Position numbers and translations under genes: made by a program
Notes under the pieces: model-generated
The model's database searches: none
Told to the model about the DNA's origin: nothing
What the model saw: the letters and a program-made list of their open reading frames with translations, nothing else
Part shown: positions 946-37,218 of the stretch, in pieces
Numbering within the stretch: the stretch's first letter is position 1
How the letters are laid out: each line of letters begins with the position of its first letter
NCBI GenBank assembly: GCA_963575745.1
Contig: CAUYUJ010000237.1
Span: forward strand, 124,001 to 188,000
Direction of reading: 5' to 3'
From: Prorocentrum cordatum
Taxonomy: Eukaryota
Length of the DNA stretch: 64,000 nt

Positions 946-1156
946 TGGAAGGAAGATACGGCACTGCAGGGAAACGTCGCGCGGTGCGCAAAGACGCTCA
1001 CCTAAGAAAGGAGACGGCCAGACGCTTGCCTCGGAATCTGTCAGTGACGCGCCCCCCCACCCGAGGGATCGCGGGGAGAGCGCCCAGACCCATGAAAGGA
1101 GAAGGGAAAAGGAACTGGGCTGGCGCAGGGAAAGCGTCAGCCCAGAGTTCCAGACA

Positions 1157-1456
1157 GGCTTGCGGCATCACCTGGGACAGCGCTATGCACTATCCTCCAG
1201 GCTGTGCCCCCCTCAAGGCGATGGGAGTCCACCGGAGCCGCTCCCTGGGAGCGGAGGTGTGTGGCGCCACTTGGGAACGCACAGCTCGTGCTATCCGCCA
1301 GGCCGTGCCTCCCGCAAGATGCAGGAAGTCCACCGAAGCCACTCCCTCGAGAAATGCCCTGAACCAGGTCTGCGGCATCACCTGGGACAGCACAGCGCGT
1401 GCTATCCGCCAGGCTGTGCCCCCTCCGTGCGAGGGGAGTCCACCGAAGCCACTCCC
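1157..1456 (-). ncRNA. Three tandem copies (1157-1245, 1256-1346, 1367-1456) of a ~90-nt putative structured RNA motif
   Basis: Minus-strand consensus GGGAGYGGCTYCGGTGGA-[hairpin]-CAYRGCCTGG-[hairpin]-CCARGTGRYGCCRCA. Hairpin sequences differ between copies but keep pairing. A fourth copy is at 4015-4101 (+). Confidence 0.55.
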
Positions 1457-3078
1457 TGGCTGCTGGGGCTGAAGATCCAAGCAAGCCGCATTGGGCTGAC
1501 CCGGTCGATCGTGAGAGGACGGGCACATAATCGCATCTAGGCTATCTGCCCGCAGCGTATCAGAGACTACGGCCATCTCATCCTCATCAGAAGAGTGAGG
1601 AGGGGGAGGAGAAGGAGGAGGAGGAGGAGGAGGCGGAGGAGGAGGAGGAGGAGGAGCAGCAGCAGCAGCAGGAGGAGGAGGAGGAACAAGTGGAGGCGTG
1701 AGGAGTCCGTCTGCCGTTCTCCGTGGGAGGCGGGAGAATGGACGGAGGAGGGCGGACGGCGGACGGACTCCTCAGTCCTCCTCGCTTCTCATGCTTCCTC
1801 CTGCTCCTCATCCTCCCCCTCCCCGCCCTCCCCCTGTCCCTCCTCCTCGCCTTCCCCCCTCCTCCTGCTCCCCTTGAAGAAGAGGAGCGAGGCGTGAGGA
1901 AGAGGAGGAGGAGGAGGAGGAGGAGGAGGAGGAGGAGGAGGAGGAGGAGGAGGAGGAGGAGGAGGAGGAGGAGGAGGGGGAGAAGGAGGAGTGAAAGGGG
2001 GGACGGGGAGTGGGTGGGGGGACGGGGGCGGAACGAGGAGAGAGGAGACGGTGGAGCAGTAGAACGGTGGAGTGGTTAGGTATTGAAATGTGTGTTTTGT
2101 TGTTTGAGCTGTTTGGTTTCTTCCCCATGTCCTAAGATCGTATTGTGGTTATTACTTAGACGCCTCCTGCGCCCTCTTCTCCTCCTCTTCGCCCCCATGC
2201 TATGGTTCGGTGTGTTATGATATGGGTTGGTATGACATGTTATGGTATGGCATGGTATGTGTTATTTTGTTATGGTATGACATGATGTGGTATGGTATGT
2301 TATGGCTTGCGATGCCATATTATGGTATATGATGGTGATGATATTGCTGATGATGATGGTGGTGGTGGTGGTGGTGATGATGACGCTGGCGGAGCAAAGT
2401 CTGAGGATATCTCGAGCGAGGCGCGGGTTTCAGCATCCCCAAGTGGGAGCCGCTAGGAGGTATTGCACTCCTCCGTTCGCGCCAAAATGGCGGGAAATCT
2501 CGAGCGGTTTGCGTGTTTTGTGGCCCAACATCCTCCGCTTTCGGAGCAGATGTGGAGGATGTCTCGAACGAGGCGCTCATTGTCGCCTCCAAGTGGGGCC
2601 AGACTGTGAGGATGTCTCGATCGGTTTGCCTGTTTTGGTGGCCAGACTCGTGGGCACGGATCCTCCCCAGGATGCCACGGGAGGCTCCAGCAGGCTCCAG
2701 GGTGCCCCAGGAGGCAACAGGAGGTCCCAGGAGGCATCAGGAGGCCACAAGAAGACTCGAGAGGCCGAGGCCCCAGGAAGCTCCAGGAAGGCCTCAGGAG
2801 GCTCCAGAATGCCCCAGGAGGCCAAAGGAGGCCCCAGGAGGCCCCAGGAGGCAACAGGAAGCGCCAGGAGGCACCAGATGGCCCCGGAAGGCACCAGGAG
2901 GCCCCAGGAGTGGCCATAGGAGTGGCTCCAATCCCACGTGTTGTACGTATGCTCCTATAGATTGTGCTTCCCCTGGAGCACGAGTCATTCGTGTTTTACA
3001 CATGTGTACATCGATTATCTCTCTCCTGTGTATCCAGCCCTAAGTGTTTTACGAATGTTCCTATGGATTGGGCATCCC

Positions 3079-4307
3079 GTGCGATGGCGCTGCCTAGAGG
3101 GGCTCTGGATCCCGTGACGGCTGCCCGCCTCGTCGAGGCGGCTGTGCGCGGGGCGCTCGGGGCGCCGAGGCGCACGGTGGCGGCGGTTGCGCGGTCAGCG
3201 GTCTCGGCGGCGGCCTTCGCCGTCGCGGCGCCGCCTCCGCCCGCCGCCGCCGCTGCCGCCGGGGCGCCACCTCCTGTTCCTCGTCCTGGTGTTCCGGGCC
3301 GCGCAGGTGCTGCTGCGGCCGACCCGACGGCGCTCGCAGCTCGGCGTCGGCGCCGCCGACAGCGCCGCGCGGCGCTGAAGGCCGCCGCGGCGCCCCTGCA
3401 GCCGCAGGCGAGGGCGTTGGGCGGGCTGCTGGAGCCGCTGCTGCCGCTGCTGGTGCGGGCCTCGCGCTCGCCCCCGTGGCCGCTGTGGAGGCGGAGGCTG
3501 CCGACGCGGAGATGGAGGACTTCGACGACGCATGGGCCGACGGGCTCGTGCGATTCCCCGATGGTGGGGCGGTGGCGGCCGCTGCGGAGGCCCGCCCGCC
3601 TCCCTCGGACGGGGCCGCTGCCGCGGCGGAGGCGGCGGATCCAGCTCGCGGAGCTGGAGGAGCTGCTGGTGCTACGGGGTGCGGCCTCGGGTGCGACGGC
3701 CAGGCCGACGGTGCCACGCGGCGGCGGCGCGGGCCCAGGCGCCATCGGGCGAAGGCGGCGGCGGAGCTGGGTGTGGCGCTCGCGGTGGCGGCGCCTGTTG
3801 TAGGCGGAGCTGCGGCTTCGGTGGTCGGCCCTGAGGATGCCTTCTTGGTGGCCGACGGCCTCCTTCGCCAGGCGGCTGACTACGAGCATCGGCTCAGCGA
3901 GCAGCTTCGGCAGATGCTGGAGTCCGTGAGCTGGAGGCCTGCCAGCGCCCTTTAGCTCGCGCTCGCGGGTGGCGCGCCTTGCGCCTGGTGGCTCCCTCCG
4001 CCTCTGCTCCTGAAGGGGTGGCTTCGGTGGACTGCCCTCTTTGGAGGGTGGCATAGCCTGGAGGGTGCCCCGCGGGGGTGCCCCAGGTGATGCCGCAGAC
4101 CTCGGTAGAGCAAGCCGAGCATTCGTCAGCCTCGGCCTCTGCGGCAGCGGCGGTGTCAAGGGGAGAGCATTCGGTGGTCTGGCCCCGTTCGGGGCTGGCA
4201 CGGCCAGGTGGGCGCCTCGCGCGGGCGCCCCTGGTGACGGCGCACACGCTGGAGCCACCCCAGGACCGAGCTCGTGCCGCGCGAGCCGAGGGCACAGCTA
4301 AACAAAA
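3079..4307 (+). mobile_element. Retroposed insert with an Ala-rich/basic/acidic ORF (ATG 3084, frameshifted, stop 3955), structured 3' region and aaacaaaa tail
   Basis: Splits the host unit attgggc(ctctcc)|tggggcacgagtcc, which is intact at ~6602-6628. Encodes MALPRGALDPVTAARLVEAAVRGALGAPRRTVAA; A-rich end at 4300-4307. Confidence 0.7.
4015..4101 (+). ncRNA. Fourth copy of the ~90-nt structured motif, 3' of the ORF in the retroposed insert
   Basis: ggggtggcttcggtgga-ctgccctc tttg gagggtgg-catagcctgg-ag ggtgcccc..ggggtgcc-ccaggtgatgccgcagacc. G-U pairs favour this strand as the RNA. Confidence 0.55.
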
Positions 4308-5259
4308 TGAGGCACGAGTCCTCGGTGATTTATGCGTGTTCCTGTAGGCAGCCCTTCTACTGCGGCTCCAATCCGCAGTGCTTCATGTACGTATGTTCCT
4401 ATTTGGGCCTCTCCTGAGGCACGAATCATCTCCAGGAGGCCCCCAGGATGCCCAGGAGGCCCCAGGAGGCCGCGCGAGGCCACAGGAGGCTTCAAACGGC
4501 CACTGGAAGCCCCGAGAGGCCCCAGAAGGCCCAGAGAGGCTCCAGGAGGCCCCAGGAAGCCCCAGGAGGTTTCAGGAGGCCCCAGGAGGCCCCAGGCTCA
4601 TGCGCGCAGACTCGCTCGTACAACTGAGGCCCATTCACACTCCAATTCTTTCACAGTTAGACTCACCCCCAGTCTATCAATACTCAAACCCGTTCGTTCT
4701 CGAAGTCTCTTGCGCCTCGGCGCTCACAGCGGGAAGGTCCATGCTAATTGATGCACATATATAGGGAGCTCCACGCAGTGAGTAATCGGTTTGTGCTTAA
4801 GTTTTGGATATGTGGTTGTTTCGTTGTCTTTGGCTGTGCCTTGTGTTTTGTGGGATTTCTCGCCGCCCGCGTATGGCATCTACGGGCAGGCTTGCATGAC
4901 GCATTGCTGCCGCAGTTCGTCGTTCACGGGGGGGAGGGGGAGGAGGAGGAGGGGGAGGTGGAGGAGGAGGCGGATGAGGCGAGGTGGAGAAGGAGGGAGA
5001 GAGGATAAGCAGGAGATGCAATTTCGGTGCTTTTGTTCGGGGTTCGAGTTTTTTATCGGGGGCTTCTGAGGGGTTCGGAGCGGCGCAAGTTGCTGGGGCT
5101 GGAGGCTCTCTTCTGGGAGCTCCTTGGCAATTGTCGGAGTCATCCGGGGGCTTCGAGGCACGTGGGAGTGGTATGAGACCTCTATGGGGTCTGGGGCTTT
5201 ATTCCCCATATCCTAAGATGGGGCTCTTGTTCCCCATATCCTAAGATGGGGTTATTGTT

Positions 5260-8200
5260 ATTACTTGGACGCCTCCTACTCCTCCTCCTCCTCCTCCCTC
5301 CTCCTCTTTCCTCCCCCCCTCCTGTCGGAGTTACTCATACTCAGACTTGCTCATACACAGACCTACTCATACTCAGACTTACTCATACTCAGACCTGCTC
5401 ATACTCAGATTTACTCACGCTCAGACATACTCATACACAGACTTACTCATACACAGACTTACTCATACACAGATTTGGAGGATGTCTCGAGCGAGGCGCT
5501 CATTTCAGCACCCCTAAGGGGAGCCGCCAGGTGTGTTTGCACGGGCTCGTTCGCGGCCATGTTGTGGGGATGTCTCAGGCGGTTTGCCTGTTTCTGGGCC
5601 CAACATCCTTCGCTTTCGGAGCAGATTTGGAGGATGTCTCGAGCGAGGCGCTCATTTCAGCACCCCTAAGGGGAGCCGCCAGGGGTGGTTGCACGGGCTC
5701 GTTCGCGGCCATTTTGTGGGGATGTCTCAGGCGGTTTGCCTGTTTCTGGGCCCAACATCCTTCGCTTTCGGAGCAGATTTGGAGGATGTCTCGAGCGAGG
5801 CGCTCATTTCAGCACCCCTAAGGGGAGCCGCCAGGGGTGGTTGCACGGGCTCGTTCGCGGCCATTTTGTGGGGATGTCTCAGGCGGTTTGCTTGTTTCTG
5901 GCCCAACATCCTTCGCTTTCGGAGCAGATTTGGAGGATGTCTCGAGCGAGGCGCTCATTTCAGCACCCCTAAGGGGAGCCGCCAGGGGTGGTTGCACGGG
6001 CTCGTTCGCGGCCATTTTGTGGGGATGTCTCAGGCGGTTTGCTTGTTTCTGGCCCAACATCCTTCGCTTTCGGAGCAGATTTGGAGGATGTCTCGAGCGA
6101 GGCGCTCATTTCACCCCCCAGGTGGGCCAGATTTTGAGGATGTCTCGATCGGTTTGCTTGTTTTGGTGGCCAGGCTCGTGGGCGCAGATTCTTCTCAGGA
6201 TGCCACAGGAGGCTCCAACAGGCTCCAGGAGGCCCCAGGAGACCACATGAGGTCCCAGGAGGCATCAGGAGGCCACAGAAAGACTCAAGATGCCACAGGA
6301 TGTCCCAAGAGGCTCCAGGAGGCCCCAGGAAGCTCCAGAAGGCCTCAGGAAACCACAGGAGGCCCCAGGAGGCAACAGGAAGCGCCAGGAGGCCTCGGAA
6401 GGCAACAGGAGGCCCCGAGAGGCCCCAGGAGCAGGAGGCCTCAGAAGGCAACAGGAGTGGCTCCAATCCCATGTGTTTTACGTATGCTCCTATCGATTGG
6501 GCCTCACCTGGAGCACGATTCTTTGATGTTCTACGTATGTTTCTATAGATGGTCCTTCTCCTGTGTACACAATCCTAAATGTTTTACTCATGTTCCTATG
6601 TATTGGGCCTCTCCTGGGGCACGAGTCCTTGGTGTTTTACGCGTGTTCCTATATATTGCCCTTCTCCTGTGGCTCTAATCCGCAATGTTTTATGTACGTC
6701 TGTTGCTATAGATTGCGCCTCTCCTGGGGCACGAAACCTTCCTAGGAGGTCCCAGGAGGTCCCAAGAGGCTCCTGGAGACCCCAGGAAGCCCCAGTAGGT
6801 TTCAGGAGGCCCCAGGAGGCCCCAGGCTCATGCACAGAGACGCGCTCGTACTACTGAGGCTCATTCACACTCCAATTCATTCGCAGTTAGATTGATGTCC
6901 AGACCGTCACAACTGAAGCCCGTTAATATTCGAAAGTTCTTGCGCCTAGACATTCACGGCGGACAGGTCCATGCGAGTAGATGCACATATGGGGAGCTCC
7001 ACGCAGTGAATAATTATTACTTGGACGCCTCCTACTCCTTCTCCCTCCTCCTCTTTCCTCCTCCCCTCCTGTCGGACTCACTCATACTCAGACTTGCTCA
7101 TACTCAGACTTACTCATACACAGACTTACCCATACTCAGACTTACTCATATTCAGACCTACTCATACTCAGACTTACTCACACTCAGACATACTCATACA
7201 CTGACTTACTCATACGCAGACTTACTCACACTCAGTTTGCTTGTTTCTGGGCTCAACATCCTTCGCTTGGAGAGCAGATTGTGAGGATGTCTCAGGCGGG
7301 GCGCTAGTTTCAGCACCCCTAAGGGGAGCCGCCAGGGGTGTTTGCACGTGCTCGTTCGCTGCCATTTTGTGGGGATGTCTCAGGCGGTTTGCTTGTTTCT
7401 GGGCCCAACATCCTTCGCTTTCGGAACAGATTTGGAGGATGTCTCGAGCGAGGCGCTGGTTTCAGCACCCCTAAGGGGAGCCGCCAGGGGTGTTTGCACG
7501 GGCTCGTTCGCGGCCATTTTGTGGGGATGTCTCAGGCGGTTTGCTTGTTTCTGGGCCCAACATCCTTCGCTTTCGGAGCAGATTTGGAGGATGTCTCGAG
7601 CGAGGCGCTCATTTTCACCCCCCAGGTGGGCCAGATTTTGAGGATGTCTCGATCGGTTTGCTTGTTTTGGTGGCCAGGCTCGTGGCCCTAAGGGGAGCCG
7701 CCAGGGGTGTTTGCACGGGCTCGTTCGCGGCCATTTTGTGGGGATGTCTCAGGCGGTTTGCTTGTTTCTGGGCGGGCATCCAACGCTCCTTCGAGAGCAG
7801 ATTTGGAGGATCTCGAGCGAGGCGCTCATTTTCACCCCCCAGGTGGGCCAGATTTTGAGGATGTCTCGATCGGTTTGCTTGTTTTGGTGGCTAGGCTCGT
7901 GGGCGCAGATTCTTCTCAGGATGCCACAGGAGGCTCCAACAGGCTCAGGAGGCCCCAGGAGACCACATGAGGTCCCAGGAGGCATCAGGAGGCCACAGAA
8001 AGACTCAAGAGGCCACAGGATGTCCCAAGAGGCTCCAGGAGGCCCCAGGAAGCTCCAGAAGGCCTCAGGAAACCACAGGAGGCCCCAGGAGGCAACAGGA
8101 AGCGCCAGGAGGCCTCGGAAGGCAACAGGAGGCCCCGAGAGGCCCCAGGAGCAGGAGGCCTCAGAAGGCAACAGGAGTGGCTCCAATCCCATGTGTTTTA

Positions 8201-8734
8201 CGTATGCTCCTATCGATTGGGCCTCACCTGGAGCACGATTCTTTGATGTTCTACGTATGTTTCTATAGATGGTCCTTCTCCTGTGTACACAATCCTAAAT
8301 GTTTTACTCATGTTCCTATGTATTGGGCCTCTCCTGGGGCACGAGTCCTTGGTGTTTTACGCGTGTTCCTATAGATTGCCCTTCTCCTGTGGCTCTAATC
8401 CGCAATGTTTTATGTACGTCTGTTGCTATAGATTGCGCCTCTCCTGGGGCACGAAACCTTCCTAGGAGGTCCCAGGAGGTCCCAAGAGGCTCCTGGAGAC
8501 CCCAGGAAGCCCCAGTAGGTTTCAGGAGGCCCCAGGAGGCCCCAGGCTCATGCACAGAGACGCGCTCGTACTACTGAGGCTCATTCACACTCCAATTCAT
8601 TCGCAGTTAGATTGATGTCCAGACCGTCACAACTGAAGCCCGTTAATATTCGAAAGCTCTTGCGCCTAGACATTCACGGCGGACAGGTCCATGCGAGTAG
8701 ATGCACATATGGGGAGCTCCACGCAGTGAATAAT
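5260..8734 (+). repeat. Head-to-tail dimer of the ~1.7-kb composite element (5260-7014, 7016-8734)
   Basis: 3' halves are nearly identical at a 1720-bp offset (e.g. ORFs 6563 vs 8283). Internal 16-bp tactcatactcagact array and 10-bp ggccccagga array. Confidence 0.9.
5470..6110 (+). repeat. ~152-bp tandem satellite (about 4 units; further units at 7270-7830)
   Basis: Unit agatttggaggatgtctcgagcgaggcgctcatttcagcacccctaaggggagcc...ccttcgctttcggagc recurs at ~151-152 bp spacing. Confidence 0.92.
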
Positions 8735-21689: not shown

Positions 21690-23810
21690 GATGCGTATAC
21701 AACCAGGTGTTTTTGTTTTACAGATTGTAGACACCCACGCTGAATCAAATTCCTGGTGGTGCACATCCCCCACATTTGAAGTCCTTGTGTAGCAGCCTTT
21801 ACAGAAGGATTCTTTGTTTATGGCGATACTACAAAAGGAGGAACATCGGGGAACAAAAACAAGGAAGACATGACACAACCTGTGCCTTCGCATAGACATA
21901 TGGGAAAAGGCCATGGAACCTGTGACGGTCTATATGTTATACGGTGCTGACCCCCACAAAATACACCGTTTCGTAGCAGCCTTTACAAAAAGGATTCGTT
22001 TTTATTTATCTGTTTTGTGGAAGCCTTCTTACAAAAGATGTTAATGTGTGGCGTTCCTACAAAACGGTTTCGAGAGTGAAAGAATTGCGGCGACGGCATG
22101 CTGAGTCCAGAAAAGCTTAAGAGGATAAATTGAAACAGCAGAAAAAGAATGGCAACCTGAAAAAGCCTGCGCGCTCGCAGCAACAACTAGGAAACAAGTA
22201 TGAACATTTTTGGTTGTAGACCCCCGACACATAGACTCCTTGTGCAGCAGCTTTCACAACAGACCAGGATTGTTTGTGTGGCGACATTACAAAAAAATGT
22301 GTCGTAGGGGATACGACATGGCCTCCACACTTGGGATTATCAGTGTGGCCTCTTGTGGTGTCTTCTTTTGAAAGAAGCAACTGCGGTGGATTTGCAATGG
22401 CGGCACCTGGAACCCAGGAAGGCTAGAGAAGAAAACAAGACAACAGGAAACACATGACTCAACTTGTGTTCTCACAGGGAAAAGTTGGAATACGCCCGGA
22501 AAACAGGTGACCGTCTTTATTCTTATGGCGAGATCCCTTAGGATTGGAATCCGTTTAGAGGAGCCGTCACATAAGGATTCCGATTGTGGCGACACTACAA
22601 AAGGATTTAACGTGTTGAAAGAATATTTGGTTCAAGGCTGCCACAGATGGAGTTCAAGTGTGGAGGCCATTGCAGATCCCCCACACTTGAAATTCGTGTG
22701 TAAGGTAGCCACAATAAGGAATCCTGGTGTAAAGGCTTCTACACCATAGTTTACATCGTGGGGGATCAGCAACCGAAAAATAGCGACAGTCACGATATGT
22801 CCTAGCCTTTTCCATTTTTTCCATGTGGAAACGTAAGCTTTTTCATCTTTGTCACATGTTCCTTTTTAGCTCTCCTGGGCTCAATGTGCGGCCGCCTCGT
22901 ATTCATCACAGTTAAAGTCCTTTGTGCCAGGCTGCACCAGGAATCCCTTTGTGCAGGCTGCCACACCAGGAATCCCCTTGCATAGGCTGCCACAGTGAGG
23001 ATCCTAAGTGTGGAGGCCACTGCAGATCTACCACACTTCAGATCCTTTTTCCAAGGTCGCCACGCACGGAATCATTTTTTTACACAGGCTGCTACAACAT
23101 GATTTCAAGTGTTGGGGATCTGCACCATAAGAATTGCGAGAATCACCGGTGTCGTAGCTTCAAGCAATTTGTCATGTTTCCTTCGTTTTCCTTTATAGCC
23201 TTCGTGGGCACACGGTGCCGCCACTGCAGATCCCTCACACTGGAAACTTTCTTGAAAGAGTTCCACACAAGGATTCCAAGTGTGGAGCCCAGTGCAGATC
23301 CCCCCAATTGAAATAATTGTGCAAGATCGCCAGAAAAGAAATCCTTTTACGAAGGCTGCTACAAAAAGGTTTCACTTGCGGGGTAGCATCGCCGTAAGAA
23401 TAGCGACGATCACAGGTTTCGTTGCTTTTTCCTATTTATCCATGTGAAAGCACAGTTTGTTTCCGGGCTGTTCCTTTTTTGTCACGTCTTCTTTCGTTTT
23501 CCTGGGCTCAAGGTGCCGCCACTGCAGATACCAACAATTGAAACTTTTTAGTCAGGCCGCCACCAAAATAATCGTTGCGCAGGCTGCCAAACAAGGATTC
23601 CAAGTGTGTAGGCCACCGCAGATCCCCCACCATTGAAGCCATTTTTTGAAAGAACGCCACACAAGGAATCGTTTTTCCAAAGGCTGCTACAACAGGGCTT
23701 GGATTATGGAGGCCATTGCGTATCCCCCATCATCGGATTCCTGTTGGTAAGATCGCAACAAAAAGAACCCTTCTCTGCAAAAGGCTGCTGCAAGAGGATT
23801 TGTTTGGAAA
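21690..23810. repeat. Relatively AT-rich modular repeat with units in both orientations
   Basis: Recurring gcagatcccccacacttg, aaggattccaagtgtggaggcc and aaggctgctacaa motifs and their reverse complements. Confidence 0.7.
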
Positions 23811-24369
23811 CCTGCCTTAAGTTGCATCCTTTTGCACGGCAGTCACAAAATAGTTACCAAGCGCGCCCGCCAAAAGTGACGGTCATGATGATGATGGTGA
23901 CGATGGTGGTGATGATGATGGTAACTGTGATGCAGATGAACCTGATGTTCGGTCGTTAGAAACACATCAAAACATATTTGTTGTAATCGTACGAACGGTC
24001 GCACGCCCCCCCCCCTTCCCGTTCTACCCCGCCGTCTTGCAATTCAGGAGGGGCGGGCCCCGTTCGAACCCTCCGTCCCCTTGAGCAGGAGGGGGGACCC
24101 TTCCAAATCCGACCCCCCCCCACCGTCAGGGAGGAAGGGCCCGCCTCCCCCGGTCAGGGAGGCCAGTGACCAAAAGGGAGGGGGGAGCCTTTGGTTCTCC
24201 AGGGGTGCTCAACGCGTTGGGGGATCACCCCTTGGTTCCAACGTGCGAAGGTGTTTTTTTCCAGGCAAACGTCCACGAAATGCGTTTTCTCGCGTATGGG
24301 TAGACATACACATGTGGTGTAAGCCATGTGGTCTAAGCCATGTGATTAAGCCTGCCTTGAAAGCTCAGA

Positions 24370-28899: not shown

Positions 28900-29170
28900 A
28901 GACGGGGGTCAGTGCAACCGGGGGTCAGCCAGAGCGCCCGATCCTGCAGGACCCTGCAGGGACAGGGTCGCATTGACCCGGGCTCGGGTGCAGGATCTTG
29001 CAGGACCCTGCAGGATCCTGCAAGGCCTGACTGACCCGGGTCTGGATTATTGACCCGGGTCAGAAGATTCCCGACTCCATTTGTAATCGGGTGCATCGAA
29101 GGAGGGGTTGATCGAGCTTCGAGATTCTGCTCTCCGGAGGCAGGATTCGAGGCTCCAAGGCAGGGCCGCA

Positions 29171-29365
29171 GCAGATGGGGTCGGAGGGTCGCGCCGCATC
29201 GGCGATGCATCGCCGATGCGGCTCGATGTGGGGCCCGATTTGCTTCACGTCGAAGTCGCCGGTGCATCGCCGACGTCGACGATGCATCTCAGGTGCATCA
29301 GCGATGCATCGCCGATGCATCGCCAGTGTATCGGCGATGCGACGCGATCCTCCGACCCCATCTAC
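29171..29365. repeat. Foldback element with an internal (gcatcgccgat) array
   Basis: agatggggtcggagggtcgcgccgcatcg is inverted as cgatgcgacgcgatcctccgaccccatct. Confidence 0.75.
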
Positions 29366-36164: not shown

Positions 36165-37218
36165 CACGACATTGAGGCACGTCACCTGGAACCAACGCAA
36201 GCGCCGAGCTGTGAAGCCGAGAACTCAAGCGGATAAGGAACAGGTTCAGCACCCGGGCGCACTGAAAGTCCCGATTAGCATCCTGATGAAGAAGATGACC
36301 AACCCCACATTGGCCCCTTCTCTGCCGACGACTCTGTTGGCCGCCTACCCCTGTAGACACCTAACAAACTGATCGTGTGAATTCGGCATGCACGAGATCA
36401 TCGTGATGCCTTCCATCAGCTCGACGACGCGGAGCCCCGCGCCTCTGGCCCTGCCGCTCCTGGGAACAGGAACGGCTTCTTCGTGCACGTATACAGCCCG
36501 CTGCCCTTTCGTCAGCATGCGGGAGCCCAGGCGGACAGCCCACACACCTTCCATATGGTTCCACTCGGGCACAGCAGCCAGGAGCTGCCCCGCGCCGGTG
36601 AACATCCACTGCGGCAGAGCTGGGAACCTCTGCCGCGCCGGTACCTTCTCCTGAGCCTTGGCCTTCACCAGGTCCTGCACCATTTTCTCGATGGACTCCT
36701 CGACGCGCAGGCCGGGCACCTTGCCACTCAGCTCCATCTCATCATCGTCGTCGTCGCCCGCCAGAGACGGCGGCAACCACTCGTCCTCCTCCACCTCCAC
36801 CTTCGGTCCGGACGCCGTCGTCGCCAGGTCGCCCCCGCGGCCCTGCTCCTCCGGCTCCAGCCTCCGCCTCTTCTCGTCATCGTCGCCCGCCTGGCGCGCC
36901 GCCGCGGCCAGGTCCTTCTTCTTCCGCCTCTTCCGCTGCCGCCGTGCCGAACCGGCGGCGGCAGGCTCAGGGGCACCCCGCGCTGGACCATTGCCACACC
37001 GCGTCGCCACCATGAACGAGGTGGCCACGGCCCGCAGCAGCGGCGGCTGCGACGGTCCGGCGCGGGGCGCCAGCCTGTACAGCTGCGCGGACGGCCGCCT
37101 CCACGAGGGAAGCCGCCACCGCACCGCCGCTGGCATCCGCCATCCCGCGCGCGCCGCCGGAGGGGGGGCCCGGCGCGCACTTTCGCAGACTGTGCTTGAG
37201 CCAAAATGGCTTGAGCCA
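36165..37218 (-). pseudogene. SL-capped retroposed copy of the LVEAAVR..GAPRRTVAA ORF family (frameshifted)
   Basis: Relict SL at the 5' end; 37107-37033 encodes LVEAAVRAAVQAGAPRRTVAAAAAA, then shifts into ORF 37136-36345 (RRQRKRRKKK, then an acidic tract); intronless and embedded in satellite. Confidence 0.75.
37195..37218 (-). other. Tandem relict dinoflagellate spliced leader (DinoSL)
   Basis: Minus strand reads TGGCTCAAGCCATTTTGGCTCAAG; the last 16 nt equal the 3' end of DinoSL DCCGTAGCCATTTTGGCTCAAG. Confidence 0.9.

Follow-up and report, generated by a model that had tools for sequence, protein, structure and literature searches.

The DNA analysed here, called the window throughout, is a 64-kb stretch of contig CAUYUJ010000237.1 from the dinoflagellate Prorocentrum cordatum. 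It contains five copies of a motif, about 95 nucleotides (nt) long, at two loci. All five share one three-armed RNA fold, which belongs to a defined strand. At one locus, two copies lie between the stop codon of an open reading frame (ORF) and the A-rich end of a dispersed unit that carries both. The motif probably represents a novel structured RNA, carried in the tail of a transcript that is repeated and retrocopied. As for what it does, we tentatively favour a modular element, variable in copy number, that acts in cis from the 3' untranslated region (UTR) of a lineage-specific, dispersed family of P. cordatum transcripts, and whose junction may be read by a protein.

Motif copies, fold and strand

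Three of the copies, A (1365-1458), B (1255-1348) and C (1155-1247), are on the minus strand. They are arranged head to tail, together spanning 1155-1458, with spacers of about 20 and 10 nt. The remaining two, D (4012-4103) and E (4160-4250), are on the plus strand, and about 63 nt separate them. A preliminary description of this DNA had placed copies A to D correctly but overlooked copy E. The segments that it listed as conserved, and its hairpin pairs for A to D, are found in our alignment as it gave them. Pairwise identity among the five copies is 56-83%. When both loci were compared with the window using BLAST, each copy was recovered from each other copy (E-values of 6e-4 to 6e-24). Used alone, copy D recovers copy E, with 75.6% over 90 nt and an E-value of 1.9e-10. 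The preliminary description had also proposed a search with nhmmer. Run on the window, this returned the five copies with E-values of 4e-18 to 7e-25, and the next match has an E-value of 0.63. Finally, a covariance model (R1) was used with filters off. The copies score 83-100 bits (A, 99.6; B, 83.4; C, 97.1; D, 99.0; E, 86.8). Note that R1 was built from the five copies themselves, so these scores are circular. All others among the 41 listed matches, across the 64 kb, score 17.5 bits or less. We conclude that the repeats are beyond chance, that the five copies form a genuine repeat family, and that the window contains no additional copies. The best R1 scores outside the motif, 14-17.5 bits, belong to a cluster of palindromic repeats at 28984-29357 (+), of TGCAGGATCC- and GATGCATCGC-type, which is unrelated to it.

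The structure of the motif was taken from the RNAalifold consensus of the five copies. This has 37 pairs, for which 183 pair cells were counted, and forms a three-way junction with one-base linkers. The closing helix reads GUGGC/GCCGC, then UC/GA. It is extended outwards, by four pairs, through an outer helix in which alignment columns 5-8 pair with columns 96-99. Arm 1 consists of GUG/CAY, a conserved GA bulge, and a variable hairpin of 9 base pairs (bp). Arm 2 is built in the same order from GCCUGG/CCAGGU, a conserved NG bulge, and a variable 8-bp hairpin. The loops differ among copies in both length and sequence. Copy A, which occupies alignment columns 5-99, keeps 36 of the 37 consensus pairs, as does copy D; 35 are kept in C, 33 in B and 32 in E. 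Copy E is the most divergent of the five, and its closing helix has two mismatches.

Pairing in the alignment exceeds that in shuffles. In total, 94.0% of the 183 cells are paired, compared to 83.0% after shuffling, and none of 500 shuffles reached the observed value. If the 3' partners are slid by 1-3 columns, only 40-49% of cells remain paired. Changes on both sides are evident in 12 of the 37 pairs; the shuffled mean is 5.7, and a single shuffle in 500 reached 12. Compensatory pairs are present in all four helices, including two of the four pairs in the outer helix, and their types vary from copy to copy. Conservation is unevenly spread. Mean identity is 84% in the junction-proximal core, which includes a near-invariant stretch of 35-40 nt, and 53% in the distal hairpins. 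Even so, hairpin pairing is 94-97%. That the helices change in sequence while pairing stays, as the preliminary description claimed, is therefore borne out. We conclude that one three-armed RNA fold has been maintained, by compensatory change, as the sequences of the arms diverged. For so small a set, of five sequences related by descent, these pairing statistics appear strong. A further pairing, between GGU and the terminal RCC, had been suggested to form a pseudoknot. Whilst 14 of 15 cells are compatible with this pairing, no pair is changed on both sides, and the pseudoknot would compete with the covarying outer helix.

Additional variation was available from public sequencing runs. Ten runs with shared words (each share at most 0.13) were used, and their assembled contigs compared. 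Among the variants listed, 14 places are inside motif copies; these were mapped by hand on alignment A1, with the partner base assumed to be unchanged. Four of the places are unpaired (4017, 4055, 4062 and 4209) and ten are paired. In nine of the ten, the variant keeps or restores the pair. Specifically, variants at 4166, 4169, 4248 and 1222 repair a mismatch present in the window, the first three restoring broken pairs of copy E, and those at 4049, 4054, 4217, 4249 and 1320 keep the pair. The variant at 4175 breaks it.

The pair types also reveal which strand is folded. Of the 183 cells, 146 are Watson-Crick, 26 are G-U, 4 are A-C and 7 are of other types. The G-U cells are spread over 13 pair columns, the A-C cells over 4. 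Since G-U cells far outnumber A-C cells, and the ratio would be reversed on the opposite strand, the fold belongs to the strand stated above for each copy. Single copies fold, in the sense orientation, with energies of -40.2 to -46.8 kcal/mol (z-scores of -0.8 to -2.4); the antisense values are -27.2 to -38.4 kcal/mol (z-scores of +0.6 to -1.9). Copies D and E fold on the strand of the adjoining ORF, and the sense previously drawn from the G-U pairs stands.

Conservation might, in principle, result from a protein reading frame, and the preliminary description named this among the cases that would count against it. We found that no frame is kept among the copies. Insertions and deletions of 1 and 2 nt in the loops shift the frame from copy to copy, while bases downstream stay conserved, and stops are present in every frame in at least some copy. 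Hence, a protein-coding repeat is ruled out. An antisense ORF, spanning copies A to C, has zero relatives among 5.8 billion proteins.

The carrier unit and the trio locus

Copies D and E are part of a unit on the plus strand, at 3077-4307, surrounded by a composite satellite. Further along, where the satellite is found again, 6371-6611 aligns with the left flank (2850-3076) and 6615-6823 with the right flank (4308-4513). Since the two flanks match adjoining satellite segments, 3077-4307 is an insertion of 1.23 kb, with boundaries good to about 3 nt. The inserted unit begins 7 nt 5' of an ATG at 3084. This starts an ORF (3084-3955, plus strand) that runs from MALPRGALDP... to ...SVSWRPASAL and stops with TAG at 3953-3955. 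Copy D follows, about 57 nt past the stop codon, and then copy E. The unit finishes with AAACAAAA, an A-rich 3' end at 4300-4307, positioned directly at the satellite junction. We saw no target-site duplication at the junctions of 3077-4307 and, where the unit begins, found no relic of the spliced leader. Given the clean insertion, and the A-rich end, the unit looks retroposed.

The surrounding satellite recurs at 2400-3076, 4308-4600, 5331-6826 and 7075-8546. It is built of 16-nt, 152-nt, 10-nt (CCAGGAGGCC-type) and 53/106-nt repeats. In X7, one of the public runs, its word depth is up to about 31,000, and it is nearly absent from two others, X1 and X5.

In this copy of the unit, the ORF is frameshifted near 3392-3480. 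Contigs of the public runs show a 1-base insertion behind position 3392, and P0007, a relative of the encoded protein, reads across the region in a single frame. Hence, this copy looks to be decaying. The unit ORF contains no Pfam domain. A word-indexed protein search with the ORF returned three short and three longer relatives, and an exhaustive search returned six relatives, besides the ORF itself, plus one weak match. All are gene models named Prorocentrum cordatum, in agreement with the dinoflagellate host named in the preliminary description. Among these relatives, which lie on contigs that differ in length, are fusions to FHA, TPR or ShK parts and a model with two tandem units. This is how a dispersed repeat unit behaves. 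Note that P0007 leaves one ORF unit at its end (after ...QMLES, corresponding in the window to GTGAGC at 3926-3931) and continues inside the next, resuming before AAVRGALGAP and after an AG (about 3133-3136 in the window). In tandem units arranged as P0007 indicates, annotation would treat as an intron everything from the stop codon, through the motif-bearing 3' region, to the next start.

The preliminary description considered the motif part of a retroelement, and this holds in part. In favour are the insertion of the D/E unit, its A-rich end, and the sense shared with the ORF. Conversely, neither the window nor the unit ORF encodes a reverse transcriptase. Thus, a Pfam scan of 148 window ORFs (of at least 122 amino acids, with low-complexity ORFs filtered out) identified no reverse transcriptase and no credible domain; a match to Apo-CIII, at 19.5 bits, is below the cutoff of that family. 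Without a reverse transcriptase in these ORFs, the word retroelement can describe at most a non-autonomous or processed copy. Compared with the 3' module of a non-long-terminal-repeat (non-LTR) retrotransposon, or a short interspersed nuclear element (SINE), the D/E unit has the A-rich end and the clean insertion. It has no target duplication, and no reverse transcriptase is in the window. Retroposed dinoflagellate genes are classically recognised by a spliced-leader relic. The sole exact relic in the window is a 15-mer at 37195-37209. It is part of a tandem relic on the minus strand (37190-37216), consisting of GGCTCAAG then CCATTTTGGCTCAAG, upstream of a GC-rich minus-strand ORF. The presence of this relic indicates that retroposition of mRNA operates in this genome.

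Contigs from X1 and X5, two runs of one organism, cover 3094-4318 with 85-99% likeness and in many paralogous pieces. They scarcely touch the satellites that dominate X7, a DNA run. This is a hint that the carrier unit may be transcribed. In one X1 contig, 3949-4169 is replaced by 38 letters that end in the start of the motif consensus. Hence, that relative has a single motif unit after the ORF.

The trio, formed by copies A, B and C, is in different surroundings. It sits between GGA-type microsatellites. Neither an ORF nor an A-rich end is recognisable at 1155-1458, which also lacks homology to the sequence flanking D and E. The two loci are homologous up to the motif edges and no further. 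Copy A is 77% identical to D, 80% to B and 83% to C; the figure for D and E is 69%. Since A is about as near to D as to its own neighbours, the array is either old or was inherited as units that had already diverged. Close by, at 1690-1785, is a long inverted repeat with exact 12-nt arms, GAGGAGTCCGTC and GACGGACTCCTC, flanked by GGA and CCT microsatellites. The inverted repeat and the microsatellites attract many sub-threshold matches to microRNA-type Rfam families, which are artefacts of low complexity. More widely, the window consists essentially of repeats and lineage-specific sequence, with 144 rows reported by Tandem Repeats Finder. G+C content dips to 46% at 22001-24000, compared to 55-71% elsewhere.

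Known families, function and rival explanations

We compared the motif with described RNA families. All 4227 Rfam models, at their gathering thresholds, gave no match anywhere in the 64 kb. With E-values of up to 10, there were 68 matches in the region 1000-4400; all are low-complexity, microRNA-type or similar, and outside the copies. When Rfam was applied to the two short motif stretches, three sub-threshold rows touched a copy. These were NrsZ (10 bits, against a threshold of 76.9), NLPC-P60 (13.6 bits, against 53.7, and antisense) and SNORD100 (13.8 bits, antisense and mostly spacer). The Rfam comparison foreseen in the preliminary description therefore identifies no known family. ARAGORN detected no transfer RNA (tRNA) genes and sees no cloverleaf in the window; by this measure, the motif is neither a tRNA nor a tRNA-derived SINE. 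Hammerhead ribozymes are three-way junctions with the core CUGANGA ... GAAA and a cleavage-site UH. No Rfam hammerhead family matched at E-values up to 10, and the core is missing from the junction strands UYCGGUGGA, CAYRG and GUGAU. Ribozymes resembling that of hepatitis delta virus (HDV) form a nested double pseudoknot (P1, P1.1, P2, P3 and P4) with a catalytic C in J4/2. There was no Rfam match to HDV or CPEB3, and manual threading leaves 4 nt for P1 and puts the strands in the wrong order. That neither core fits had already been reported, and Rfam, the junction strands and the threading all agree. The selenocysteine insertion sequence, k-turn, Alu domain of the signal recognition particle, 5S RNA, group II domain V and thiamine pyrophosphate riboswitch were also dropped; by eye, their signatures misfit, and Rfam found no match.

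Searches elsewhere used a pattern with the conserved core fixed and both hairpins free. The sole metagenome match (L001) is in a long bacterial ORF, with hairpin 1 broken. Prokaryote genomes gave three matches; the best scores 10.5 bits with R1, and two score nothing at E-values up to 1. We attribute all of these to chance. A viral collection, scanned with the core pattern, gave no matches. A literature search, which included the conserved strings as text and had the supplements of the P. cordatum genome paper outside its coverage, found no description of the motif. The accessible portions of a review of dinoflagellate RNA-binding proteins, of the genome paper, and of an introner preprint mention no such element. 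On the strength of these comparisons, the motif appears to fall in no described RNA family.

How might the motif work? In the reading that we tentatively favour, the conserved junction would be a docking site for a protein, specific in both sequence and shape, and the variable hairpins would serve as rigid arms. The presence of one to three units per transcript would raise avidity. The docking protein might be one that binds RNA and regulates how stable mRNAs are or how they are translated. Alternatively, it could be the reverse transcriptase that copies these transcripts into the genome. Docked units would then affect, in cis, what happens to the transcript: its stability, its translation, or its choice as a template for reverse transcription.

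Several points weigh against a protein-read element of 3' UTRs. The alignment comprises five copies from one window, all related by descent. A near-invariant junction core, with helices free to change, is the signature of ribozymes and riboswitches too, and the protein partner of the junction is purely inferred. No run among the ten is catalogued as RNA; the description of X1 and X5 as RNA is an automated guess, backed only by the near-absence of X7 satellites, and the variant counts depend on the hand mapping described above. Furthermore, since the trio has neither an ORF nor an A-rich end, the notion that the motif is always in a 3' UTR rests on one locus together with the contigs.

The main rival, though we consider it unlikely, is that the unit of about 95 nt is itself mobile, as a short non-autonomous element. 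It could resemble a SINE, a miniature inverted-repeat transposable element, or an introner. The fold would then serve mobilisation, and the copies would be independent insertions or local amplifications. This fits with homology between the loci being limited to the motif, with unrelated flanks, and with the unequal spacers (about 20, 10 and 63 nt). It also fits with A resembling D, at the other locus and on the other strand, about as well as it resembles B and C. In addition, the closing helix could supply terminal inverted repeats, GT and AG are the first and last bases of copies A and D, and P. cordatum introns are introner-rich, according to the accessible part of a published account (PMC10666404). 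However, no direct repeats were seen, by eye, flanking any of the five copies, and individual units have no A-rich end after them. The excess of G-U over A-C also disfavours a palindrome maintained purely at the level of DNA. In the dinoflagellate introner model, as set out in the accessible part of its preprint, a 4-nt target duplication provides the 5' splice site and the inverted repeats end at AG (bioRxiv 10.1101/2020.10.14.339549). Copies B and E lack the AG. Moreover, D and E are kept in a processed-looking unit, rather than spliced out. Consequently, and with no flanking direct repeats, an introner-like element was rejected.

It is distinctly unlikely that the motif is the first member of a new class of catalytic, ligand-sensing or exonuclease-sensing RNA in dinoflagellate nuclear transcripts. 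Such an RNA would be a ribozyme, or a junction like that of a riboswitch or an exonuclease-resistant RNA (xrRNA), present in tandem in 3' regions. A narrower proposal, modelled on retrozymes, on satellites bearing hammerheads and on non-LTR elements with HDV-like ribozymes, is that the tandem copies are small self-cleaving ribozymes of a new class. We give this a slim chance. The anatomy would be typical, with a three-way junction, a near-invariant core and freely covarying helices. The tandem copies, and the link to a retroposed-looking unit, also speak for it. Conversely, no Rfam ribozyme family matches, even at E-values up to 10, the junction strands lack the hammerhead core, and the motif could not be threaded as an HDV-like fold. 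Almost no nucleotides in the junction are left unpaired, provided that the consensus pairs hold. Furthermore, D and E are uncut within a unit that was seemingly copied from mature RNA.

The motif could also lack a function as RNA, the hairpins being relics of descent or maintained as DNA palindromes, or the copies could be an array of small RNA genes. We regard this as improbable to a similar degree. Only five copies are available, all related, and the genome is GC-rich and repeat-rich, with the 144 tandem-repeat rows noted above in 64 kb. Minimum free energy z-scores of single copies are modest (-0.8 to -2.4). Against relics stand hairpins that pair at 94-97% with 53% identity, compensatory types that differ between copies, the 26 to 4 ratio of G-U to A-C, and the nine of ten paired-column variants, in other copies, that keep or restore the pair. 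Against small RNA genes, there is no tRNA and no Rfam gene family, and D and E are within a longer, transcript-like unit. Neither idea agrees well with the pairing statistics or with the surroundings of the copies.

Least probable, and by analogy only a faint prospect, is an element that stalls exonucleases or protects 3' ends, like the flavivirus xrRNA or dumbbell, yielding stable 3'-UTR fragments or protecting the transcript: the 3' location, tandem units, three-way junction and possible GGU-ACC tertiary pairing (14 of 15 cells) would suit it, but Rfam has no xrRNA or dumbbell match, the pseudoknot is without covariation and competes with the outer helix, and the loops are not conserved, making a pseudoknot between loop and downstream sequence unlikely.

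Comparison with known systems

In dinoflagellates, gene control is largely post-transcriptional, and mRNAs are copied back into the genome on a large scale. Our literature search found no structured, cis-acting RNA of dinoflagellate nuclear transcripts like the motif. A compact three-way junction with an invariant core offers a practical starting point; it could serve to capture a protein that reads it, in cleavage and exonuclease tests, and for tracing copies genome-wide. Such tracing could tell whether the motif marks transcripts for regulation or for retroposition.

Several known systems share features with the motif. The flavivirus xrRNA and dumbbell elements are, likewise, tandem three-way junctions in a 3' region. 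They differ in that the motif has no family match and no supported pseudoknot, and its host is a cellular transcript of a dinoflagellate. With hammerhead, HDV-like and twister ribozymes, the motif shares a compact junction, conserved core, covarying helices and tandem copies. Unlike these, it matches no Rfam model, has no hammerhead core, and does not thread as a nested double pseudoknot. Should the motif nevertheless prove catalytic, a little-studied lineage of eukaryotes would have yielded a further class of ribozyme.

Dinoflagellate introners, as far as the accessible portion of their description goes, are also short and repeated, have terminal inverted pairing, and are from the same group of organisms; two of the five motif copies have GT...AG. 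The motif differs by having no 4-nt target duplication, by three of five copies lacking GT...AG, by being retained, and by covariation of its hairpins that is specific to the RNA strand.

Non-LTR retrotransposons and their SINE partners have structured modules at the 3' terminus, exemplified by the R2 3' UTR and the stem-loop of eel UnaL2. The motif has no sequence family in common with these, and the window contains neither a reverse transcriptase nor a partner long interspersed nuclear element. Positions differ too, the motif being 50-290 nt from the end of the unit and present as one to three diverged units. What the motif and these modules have in common is RNA structure close to the 3' end of transcripts that are copied to new places in the genome; here, the carrier is a clean insertion with an A-rich end.

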